From Candidatus Hydrogenedentota bacterium (GTDB taxonomy: Bacteria > Hydrogenedentota > Hydrogenedentia > Hydrogenedentales > JAEUWI01): a stretch of 64,000 bases of DNA. The stretch's first letter is position 1, and each line of letters starts with the position of its first letter. The notes beneath the pieces were generated by a model. It was not told the origin of the DNA. It worked only from the letters and a program-made list of their open reading frames with translations, and did no database searches. The DNA is taken from positions 32,001 through 96,000 of the forward strand of contig JAXMOL010000023.1 in assembly GCA_034669905.1 (NCBI GenBank), given 5' to 3'. The position numbers and the translations under genes are program-made. Below, piece by piece: positions 1-4,577 of this stretch.

Positions 1-169
1 CCGCATTCAGAAGATTGTGGAAGAAGAAGACCCCTACAAGCCCCTGAGTGATCAGAAGATCGCGGACCTCCTCAAGAAGGAGGGCACCAATGTGGCGCGT
101 CGCACGGTGACCAAGTATCGCGAAGCCTTGAACATCCCCGCTACGACCAAGCGAAAGCAGTACAAGTAA
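1..169 (+). CDS. rpoN: RNA polymerase sigma-54 factor, C-terminal fragment (truncated by window edge)
   Basis: Frame from nt 2 reads RIQKIVEEEDPYKPLSDQKIADLLKKEGTNVARRTVTKYREALNIP...YK-TAA; contains the RpoN box ARRTVxKYRE. Confidence 0.97.
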   Translation, partial: RIQKIVEEEDPYKPLSDQKIADLLKKEGTNVARRTVTKYREALNIPATTKRKQYK

Positions 170-2471: not shown

Positions 2472-3692
2472 TTAACTGACCAGCGACGAAAGCTGAAGAA
2501 TCGGCATGAAGAGGGCAATTACGATACCGCCTACGACCACGCCCATCATTCCAATCAGAATGGGTTCAATCAGACTGGTCAGACTGTCCACCATGGCCTT
2601 TACTTCCGCATCATAGAAGTCGGCAATCTTCGCCAACATGATCTCCAGGGCACCTGTCTTTTCACCGACACCGATCATGCGGGTCACCATGGCCGGGAAG
2701 ACTTCGCTTCGCATCAGGGGGTCGGCCAGCGTATCACCATTACGCACGCTGTCGGCAGCCTCACGAACGGCCCGGGCAAAAACCTCGTTGCCCGCCGTAC
2801 GTTCCGTAATTTCCAGCGCCTGAAGAATGGCCACGCCACTCCGGGTCAGCGTGCTGAGCGTACGGGTAAAGCGGCTGATGGCAACCTTACGCAAAAGGTT
2901 ACCAAAGATGGGCAACCGCAAGCGCAATTTGTCGAGGTTATATTTGCCGGTCTCCGTGGCACCATACATGCGGACTGCAAAGAATATGGCCACCGAAACG
3001 ATAATAATGGTGGGAATGGCATACCAGGAACGGAGGAAATTACTGACCATAATGAGAATCTGGGTCGGGGCGGGAAGATCCCGTCCGAAACTCCCGAATA
3101 TCTCCGCGAACTGGGGCACGACGAAAACAATCAAGCCACCGGCAATCAGGATAATCATACCGAAGGCAACGACAGGGTAGGTCATGGCGGATTTGATACG
3201 GCGCTTCAGTTCTTCGGATGCTTCCAGATAGTCGGCCAACTGAAGCAGCACGCCATCGAGATCACCACTGGCCTCACCGGAGCGCACCATGCTCACAAAA
3301 AGGTCGGGAAAGGCTTTGGGAAACTTGCGCAGGGCATCGGAAAAGGTTTCACCCGATTCGACTTCCTGGGCAATTGCGTCGATGACGGCACCAAAATTAG
3401 GATCATCGGTCTGATCCGCCAAAATGTCTAAGCCCTGGAGGAGGGGCAGACCGGCGCTCACGATGGTCGAGAGCTGACGGGTAAACACGAGCAGCTCCGC
3501 CGTCTTGACGCGCTTGTTCAATTTTGCCGCGCCGCCGCCCATGCTGAGGCCGCCGCCCTTCTCCGTCAACTTATCGGCGATAAGCCCCTTTTGCTGCAGC
3601 ATCTGAGTAGCCGCCTGACGTGTATTGGCGGTAAGGGTCCCCTGCTTTTTGGTACCGTTTTGCGCGCGCGCTGTATAGGCATACGTCGGCAT
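2472..3692 (-). CDS. pilC: Type IV pilus platform protein PilC / T2SS F family
   Basis: MPTYAYTA start with GAGGAG RBS; FTRQLSTIVSAGLPL, GEASGDLDGVL, KSAMTYP, GEKTGALE, IEPILI motifs. Confidence 0.93.
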   Translation of the reverse strand: MPTYAYTARAQNGTKKQGTLTANTRQAATQMLQQKGLIADKLTEKGGGLSMGGGAAKLNKRVKTAELLVFTRQLSTIVSAGLPLLQGLDILADQTDDPNFGAVIDAIAQEVESGETFSDALRKFPKAFPDLFVSMVRSGEASGDLDGVLLQLADYLEASEELKRRIKSAMTYPVVAFGMIILIAGGLIVFVVPQFAEIFGSFGRDLPAPTQILIMVSNFLRSWYAIPTIIIVSVAIFFAVRMYGATETGKYNLDKLRLRLPIFGNLLRKVAISRFTRTLSTLTRSGVAILQALEITERTAGNEVFARAVREAADSVRNGDTLADPLMRSEVFPAMVTRMIGVGEKTGALEIMLAKIADFYDAEVKAMVDSLTSLIEPILIGMMGVVVGGIVIALFMPILQLSSLVS

Positions 3693-3815: not shown

Positions 3816-3844
3816 AGTATAAGCACTTCTAACGGAGAAGACAA
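3816..3844 (-). promoter_or_regulatory. Sigma-70-type promoter for pilC
   Basis: TTGTCT-N17-TATACT on the minus strand, ~125 nt upstream of the pilC start. Confidence 0.6.
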
Positions 3845-3931
3845 GTAATTTCTTGGTAAACTCTTTACACCTGCGGGACGCAAGCACCTCGTTTCCCCCC
3901 GGAAGCCCGGCGTCCTTCGGCGTTTGGACAC

Positions 3932-4076
3932 AAAAAAATAGGTAAAGAAAGCGACCCACAATGTTGGCTACCAATCGGCGCATCGACAGGATGCTCGACC
4001 GTAACCCGGGCTTGGTGGCAGCGTCAACATTGTTACATGTCTAGCCTGACACTGCGGGCTGCTTTCGCTTACCCAT
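3932..4076 (-). ncRNA. Putative ~145-nt rod-shaped (6S-like) non-coding RNA
   Basis: 5' and 3' ends pair over 31 bp (9+6+11+5), 12/10-nt central bubble, irregular apical stem, U7 tail; 8 G.U pairs fix the minus strand; 5' end coincides with the predicted sigma-54 +1. Confidence 0.75.
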
Positions 4077-4086
4077 GACTATACAA

Positions 4087-4103
4087 AGCAAGAGTCAGGC
4101 CAA
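4087..4103 (-). promoter_or_regulatory. Sigma-54 (-24/-12) promoter
   Basis: TTGGCCTGACTCTTGCT (GG-N10-GC; consensus TGGCAC-N5-TTGCW); predicted +1 = 4076. Confidence 0.7.
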
Positions 4104-4190
4104 AACGCACCATTCAGGAAAAACAACCTCAAACACCTGTAAAATAACAGTTTAGCATTGCCGACCTGCGACGACCTTTAGTAGGAATGC

Positions 4191-4252
4191 GTCAATAGTT
4201 TGCCGCCGTGACAAACCTTTGACTGTCGGACCGACAAATCGTCAGTTTCGAC
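4191..4252. promoter_or_regulatory. Candidate enhancer (UAS) sites for a sigma-54 activator
   Basis: GTCAATAGTTTGCC (4191), GACAAACCTTTGAC (4210), palindrome TGTCGGACCGACA (4224-4236), GTCAGTTTCGAC (4241); 115-175 nt upstream of +1. Confidence 0.45.
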
Positions 4253-4310: not shown

Positions 4311-4577
4311 CTACCTCCCGGGAGCCCCTACCGGATGGTAGAAATTCCACAATCGAAGAACCACTACAGCGAAGGCGATGCAAACCGCGATCCCGACCAC
4401 GAAGGCTATCAGGAGCCCGCGCCACCCAAAACCGCTCGCCCCTTCCGAGGGACCCTTGAGCTTCTTAAAGAATTGGGATGTATTTTCTTCCATCGATGCG
4501 CGGAACATCTTGATCCAAATCATGAACGCAACTATCCCCACGATGATGAGGATCTCTTTAAATCCTATCGTTATCAA
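4311..4577 (-). CDS. Small two-helix membrane protein, hypothetical
   Basis: 88-aa ORF (TTG start) with two hydrophobic segments. Confidence 0.5.
   Translation of the reverse strand: MITIGFKEILIIVGIVAFMIWIKMFRASMEENTSQFFKKLKGPSEGASGFGWRGLLIAFVVGIAVCIAFAVVVLRLWNFYHPVGAPGR

Follow-up and report, generated by a model that had tools for sequence, protein, structure and literature searches.

The small RNAs GlmY, Qrr, CrcZ and Pxr, and the Y RNAs of Salmonella, are transcribed from sigma-54 promoters, and several sigma-54-transcribed small RNAs act as protein decoys. Type IV pilus genes, too, have sigma-54 promoters, under control of the PilR type. A further group of RNAs binds RNA polymerase itself. 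In the sources cited here, its members target the primary holoenzyme or the core enzyme (6S, Ms1 and CoRP; PMC11077062, PMC9130861). The 6S RNA (ssrS, RF00013) is given there as about 180–200 nt long (PMC13414033), and Ms1 and CoRP as RNAs of Actinomycetota that bind the polymerase core (PMC11077062, PMC9130861). A literature search with little coverage of subscription papers turned up neither an RNA described as binding the sigma-54 form of polymerase nor any study of RNA in Hydrogenedentota; supplementary lists of RNA motifs could hold the RNA described here.

In this report, we describe a locus for a real, sigma-54-dependent structured RNA, apparently uncatalogued and outside RF00013. It lies on the minus strand, between a small ORF and pilC, in a window (the whole stretch of DNA analysed, 64,000 nucleotides) from a Candidatus Hydrogenedentota bacterium. 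As originally predicted, the RNA is preceded by a sigma-54 promoter, which reads TTGGC-N7-TTGCT (4103-4087, minus strand); the consensus spacing from this promoter gives a predicted RNA start at about 4076. The 138 nt from this start form a fold with paired ends, and seven U residues (3938-3932) follow behind the closing stem. The features are collected in Table 1. An ORF of 88 aa (4311-4577, minus strand) lies upstream of the RNA, with similar text in other loci of the genus; it has no Pfam match and no informative match in the protein atlas. A sigma-54 promoter on the antisense strand at 4016-4030 was considered and ruled out, its spacing pattern being GG-N10-AT.

Table 1. Features of the locus, in window positions
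Feature	Position	Strand	Basis or remark
Candidate enhancer, inverted half-sites of TGAC/GTCA type	4190..4246	.	Kept in the genus
Sigma-54 promoter	4087..4103	-	-24 GG at 4101/4100, -12 GC at 4089/4088; direct reading
Structured non-coding RNA (predicted), ~140 nt	3932..4076	-	Shuffle z, genus homologs, no Rfam match
Closing stem, 5' strand	4049..4076	-	Pairs with 3964-3939; probabilities mostly 0.85-1.0
Small hairpin of the 5' arm (the 'bubble' of the original prediction)	4026..4041	-	Loop variable, stem retained
Largely unpaired segment with UGCCA and CCAAG	4007..4025	-	Invariant in 8/8 genus copies
Apical hairpin, CUGUC loop 3989-3985	3966..4006	-	Includes AUGC as stem arm
Closing stem, 3' strand	3939..3964	-	Pair ensemble
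Sigma-70-type promoter of pilC	3816..3844	-	Between RNA and pilC
pilC-like gene, type II secretion F family	2472..3692	-	Pfam T2SSF; orthologs across the order
rpoN (sigma-54) 3' end, single copy	1..169	+	Pfam Sigma54_DBD

Like 6S, the RNA ends in a long closing stem, has an unpaired stretch on its 5' side and an apical stem, and occupies a stand-alone position before a protein gene. Unlike 6S, it is 130–165 nt long, lacks a two-sided central bubble, follows a sigma-54 promoter and does not match RF00013 (none at the locus at E<=5). Neither the locus nor any of 13 homologous loci matches an Rfam family, riboswitches included. The canonical 6S of the genome sits on another contig (C19) with 59 bits to RF00013, and so the RNA is, as had been claimed, distinct from the housekeeping 6S. 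Of five other RNA-bearing genomes examined for it, three also have a separate 6S, and the two without one are 60% and 93% complete. With Ms1 and CoRP, the RNA shares a lineage-restricted distribution, structure and separateness from canonical 6S; those RNAs differ in being about 300 and 516 nt long, in belonging to another phylum, and in having been shown to bind polymerase, where our case is read from sequence.

The nearest resemblance by promoter is to the sigma-54-transcribed small RNAs, which likewise have a -24/-12 promoter under an enhancer-binding activator. Here the conserved -24/-12 promoter stands about 12 nt before the RNA, which places it in that broad class. Those RNAs use Hfq, RapZ and Ro60 as partners; in the 96%-complete window genome, none of Hfq, ProQ, RapZ and Ro60 was found and, as neither RapZ nor Ro60 turned up there, the RNA does not qualify as a GlmY-type or Y RNA. 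The genome encodes CsrA, and 25 sigma-54 activator domains. Read directly, the RNA contains no GGA, let alone the repeated GGA of the CsrB/RsmZ type, and this makes CsrA an unlikely partner. The locus resembles the sigma-54 promoters of pilus genes in having, ahead of such a gene, a promoter with a dyad upstream; it differs in that a conserved, ends-paired RNA intervenes and in that pilC has a second promoter. The half-sites at the upstream dyad form a candidate enhancer for a sigma-54 activator; the strict dyad pattern introduced below has no match in the window genome itself.

The element was found in all eight other genomes of the genus (g1), at 80–94% identity, with one copy cut by a contig end. 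TTGGC-N7-TTGC is present in 9/9 genus genomes while the flanking DNA has diverged. The eight full-length genus copies share an identical block of 28 nt around UGCCA, and seven of them carry the U tract behind the stem. A covariance model of the genus, in a search that scored the best 24 candidates per genome, recovered the RNA from nine of the 133 genomes in the order, and all nine belong to the genus; a metagenome scan gave 37 loci, two of them full copies of the genus type. Assembled contigs of a relative, from three RNA-seq runs of two studies, stop at 4069, 4068 and 4060; one is 140 nt long (3929-4068) and some extend to 3917 or 3792. These contigs are unstranded and one has a loose end, and we therefore draw no conclusion from them on whether the RNA is expressed, where it ends or how abundant it is.

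Folding of the minus strand is much stronger than that of its shuffles (z -3.96; plus strand, z -2.78), bearing out the claim that a structured RNA is encoded. In the consensus fold, a long closing stem is followed on the 5' side by a small hairpin and a UGCCA segment that is mostly unpaired; the apical hairpin lies towards the 3' side. Folds of the individual sequences reveal compensatory changes in the closing stem across the genus, and the pair that closes the apical hairpin is G-C, A-U or C-G depending on the genome. The segment 4007..4025 is only weakly paired in the pair ensemble, and the CUGUC apical loop recurs in genus g5. Over the head region of the eight genus sequences, 98.8% of cells are paired in this branched fold and three pairs have changed on both sides. 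Its covariation score was reached by 1 of 500 shuffles, a control that related sequences can beat without structure; slid versions of the fold drop to 21–50%. The centre of the fold is not a two-sided bubble: its 3' side measures 1–4 nt in g1, g5 and g23, and 1 nt in the branched fold of this genus. In g1, GAC(G) at 4026-4022 can pair with the CUGUC apical loop at 3989-3985, and in g5 six such pairs can form (L118:267-342), a possible pseudoknot.

Outside the genus, we inspected the region ahead of the pilC ortholog for 117 of the 133 genomes of the order, some of these regions being cut by contig ends, and added G002 and G007 through BLAST, bringing the total to 119. Copies were picked by filter and by eye, the pattern being a sigma-54 promoter with an RNA of 125–165 nt behind it whose ends pair. 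Seven are firm (G012 in g5; G041, G043 and G037 in g23; G036 and G030 in g20; G081 in g36) and three tentative (G021, G023 and G025); with those of the genus, the RNA was seen in 19/119 genomes. GG-N10-GC precedes the other firm copies, and the ends-paired rod begins at the predicted start in this genus, g5, g23, g20 and g36 (z -1.7 to -4.9). The copy of G012 is the only one outside the genus that the covariance model joins (E 0.007, filters off); the others were assigned by position and outline. Alignments across genera were poor. The three g23 copies carry an invariant head on a covarying stem, so that a nearly invariant head combined with a closing stem that turns over while keeping its pairing is seen in two genera, g23 and this one. 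Most copies outside the genus lack the U tract. The RNA ends 120–260 nt before the pilC start codon, upstream of the second promoter.

A promoter-plus-motif pattern, run on 135 genomes of the phylum, found no relocated copy among the matches listed, which were mostly prepilin coding sequence. A weak pattern scan of GTDB returned at least 80 loci; 13 of those listed passed a loose rod filter, and none looked homologous, which leaves room for copies elsewhere. The core pattern gave ten matches in five family genomes, none of them an RNA, and a g23 copy used as a BLAST query against five genomes gave nothing convincing. An intergenic filter that was thrown off by spurious frames missed known copies and was excluded from the counts. 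In G034 (L123), 130–210 nt before pilC, there is a rod of 75 nt whose loop contains GCCAAAACC and whose tail is rich in U. It was left out of the copies, having no clear sigma-54 promoter, and is either a minimal homolog or a plain terminator. At locus L245, in a Chitinasiproducens record, a structured stretch with a terminator at its end follows a sigma-54 promoter; this is probably a small RNA of unrelated origin.

Two short motifs recur in the head. GCCA and CCAAR, complements of the sigma-54 -24 motif YTTGGC, occur 5' of the apical hairpin in 5/5 firm genera, at +34..+72; in g20 and g36 the two are fused into one site, GCCAAR, the complement of YTTGGC. The window RNA aside, GCCA stands at +34..+72 in 8/9 RNAs and YGCCA in 7/9, where the chance rates per RNA are 0.08–0.32 and 0.05–0.19, respectively; shuffled sets share any such motif in 3–5% of cases. 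The motif can be set in two registers. Since its window was chosen after inspection of the data, three tentative copies were picked partly by the motif, and an unanchored motif search over eight genera did not single it out or reach significance, the signal is modest. No duplex partner for the motif is common to the RNAs; when one was imposed on 16 RNAs, the penalty ranged from 0 to 20.7 kcal/mol.

What the RNA does is best explained, tentatively and at somewhat less than even confidence, by a stand-alone, protein-binding RNA with a 6S-like outline. The long stem from +1, the freedom of its sequence, the conserved head and the downstream promoter fit a stable protein-binding RNA best. The RNA would be transcribed alone, from an enhancer-controlled sigma-54 promoter before pilC. 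Its closing stem, free in sequence and kept in pairing, would protect it and display the head, a largely unpaired 5' strand with GCCA/CCAAR beside the apical hairpin; and the RNA would tie up a bound protein instead of pairing with messages. Discrete transcription, protein binding, the identity of the partner and any feedback are steps that we infer.

The leading candidate partner is RNA polymerase, for which the closing stem would stand in for the downstream duplex and the 5' strand for the template; polymerase in any form is possible as the partner, if on balance unlikely. Were the motif to act as a -24 element, the target would be the sigma-54 holoenzyme, and the RNA would damp the regulon that produces it. 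Such a decoy, combining the complement of the -24 motif with a downstream-like stem and made by sigma-54 under the pilus activator, could feed back on a regulon of 25 activators. We rate this specific form as distinctly unlikely. The protein-binding reading as a whole is opposed by the want of a two-sided bubble, the mostly unpaired motif with its two registers and its failure to stand out in the unanchored search, the lack of a -12 mimic, the variable spacing, the assignment of most copies outside the genus by position and outline, the rarity of the RNA beside rpoN, and the pilC promoters of family f5 that have no RNA. In duplex DNA, the RpoN box reads the two G residues on the non-template strand; if this is right, a bare CC strand would be a poor mimic. 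In addition, structures show that, until an activator acts, the cleft is obstructed by region I and the long helix of sigma-54, while region II.1 occupies the downstream channel (PMC7057263), which makes an 'open' mimic harder to load. A sigma-54 decoy might engage the closed complex, or act as a single strand, instead of as an open duplex.

The strongest rival is that the element is the 5' leader of a sigma-54-dependent pilC transcript, acting in cis to attenuate or stabilise the message, possibly with a ligand or protein at the head. Every copy found lies directly upstream of pilC on the same strand, with none relocated, although the search for copies was anchored on pilC and this position is therefore partly built in; and a U tract is missing from the majority of copies in other genera. 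Moreover, 28 genomes of family f5, chosen by eye, have a sigma-54 promoter 78–325 nt before pilC without the rod. A TGACR-N4-9-YGYCR dyad lies 113–195 nt upstream in 19 of these 28 RNA-less cases (0.8 expected) and in 5/17 RNA loci (0.4 expected); 2/70 control regions have it. Promoter and dyad are thus common to RNA-less pilC genes, which ties the promoter to pilC, and probably to one activator, and keeps the leader reading alive. Against it, a stem that begins at +1 and extends over 22–40 nt would be too stable for a switch, and no conserved alternative breaks it; no riboswitch family matches; and the RNA stops 120 nt or more short of the start codon, upstream of the sigma-70-type promoter present behind it in 17/17 RNA-bearing pilC regions, which favours a separate RNA. 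We regard a leader as unlikely, if still quite credible.

Some of the RNA-less pilC regions deserve mention in their own right. In family f5, pilC has an extended -10 promoter, and conserved, structured leaders of 100–250 nt separate it from the sigma-54 promoter in g22 (L139, L140, L145, L151, L157), g52 (L150, L162, L163) and g63 (L130, L132, L141, L143, L148, L152, L154). The five tested have no Rfam match, and they may be diverged forms of the RNA described here. Immediately ahead of the pilC start, a CACAAGAT-TGGT motif that resembles an NrdR box shares sequence with the extended -10 promoter (L139, L150, L153, L162 and others). Within the phylum, sigma-54 promoters also precede the starts of pilin-like, pspA-like and groES-like genes, named by eye (L347, L348, L350, L351, L354).

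The linkage to rpoN belongs with pilC as well. The gene ends at window position 169, about 3.8 kb from the RNA, much as originally described, but its closeness follows pilC and not the RNA. The distance between rpoN and pilC is under 3 kb in G000 and G007, but equally so in five genomes where no RNA was seen upstream of pilC (G014, G017, G022, G028 and G088); rpoN is 11–21 kb from pilC in G001, G008 and G003, and 3.4 Mb from the RNA in the closed genome G025. That closeness to rpoN is specific to the RNA is not supported; rpoN is present in 121/133 genomes, and the RNA was seen in 19/119. One genome (G093:C7:2916-3390) has the sigma-54 DNA-binding domain in two pieces, plus an intact copy on C9.

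A trans-acting small RNA, with the unpaired C-rich segment as a seed for G-rich ribosome-binding regions, is improbable. The segment after GCCA is rich in C and A, unpaired in most genera and invariant in the genus, but its sequence differs between genera, neither Hfq nor ProQ was found in the window genome, and the best duplex among 3443 start regions in a crude scan (-33.1) is no better than what 15 shuffled seeds gave (-28.7 to -34.3). Slightly less probable again is a decoy for a protein other than polymerase, such as the activator that binds the TGAC/GTCA dyad, or another RNA-binding protein. The RNA does hold UGACG and UGUCG, similar to the enhancer half-sites, and a CsrA is encoded; yet these two sequences are complementary and may simply pair, CsrA would find no GGA, and RapZ and Ro60 were not found.

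The original prediction had gone further, proposing that UGCCA and AUGC lie on a rod-like duplex that copies a sigma-54 open promoter with a 12-nt bubble. Its readings of the sequence are correct: TGGCA stands at 4016-4020 on the plus strand, giving UGCCA in the minus-strand RNA, and AUGC is present at 3983-3980. The geometry is not supported. Positions 4029/4030 were to pair with 3981/3980, but in the ensemble the former pair with 4038/4037 (p about 0.9) and the latter with 3993/3994 (p 1.0); pairing 4030 with 3980, as proposed, would set A against C, and on the template side the letters are U,A, which is not the complement of GC. The stretch meant to be open from -12 to -1 (4041-4030) itself folds as a hairpin with 4030-4026 (p 0.7–0.91). 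In our reconstruction of the rod, 93% of cells are paired because most positions are invariant; it shows no covariation (448 of 500 shuffles reach its score) and is energetically worse than the branched fold in 8/8 sequences, by 7.6 kcal/mol here and by 7.4 to 26 in the seven other members of the genus. AUGC, being a hairpin arm, varies inside the genus: it is replaced by AUGU or AUGG in two genomes, and across G005, G003 and G006 the partner has changed to match in the first two and the pairing is broken in the third. A complement of the -12 element, including GC at -13/-12, is absent from all ten RNAs examined.

Parts of that proposal fared better. UGCCA is invariant in the genus and GCCA, on a modest signal, seems to be kept across genera, although the exact UGCCA occurs only in g1, g5 and g23; the likeness to a -24 complement may likewise persist across genera, but in a motif that is mostly unpaired and has no common duplex partner. 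The distance from closing stem to motif varies between 17 and 29 nt in g1, g5, g23 and g16. A rod of slightly different register is isoenergetic with the branched fold in one of eight sequences (G005), and another rod, with UGCCA paired to UGGUA, lies 1.5 kcal/mol above the minimum in the window genome, so that a protein-bound form could differ from the branched fold; the GAC/GUC pairs, too, may be a real pseudoknot. As formulated, the open-promoter model is nonetheless very improbable. That only the DNA sites matter and the fold is incidental is almost certainly wrong: AACAT-N6-ATGTT could be an operator, but the compensatory changes in the apical hairpin and the long-range stems largely refute it.

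If the sigma-54 reading of the protein-binding RNA were true, enhancer-dependent transcription would gain a layer of control through the sequestration of sigma-54 polymerase by an RNA, and that RNA would be a 6S-like regulator for the sole class of sigma factor unrelated to sigma-70. Should the element prove to be the leader of pilC, or to act as decoy for some other protein, it would still be an uncatalogued, conserved RNA in the regulation of pili in an uncultured phylum.
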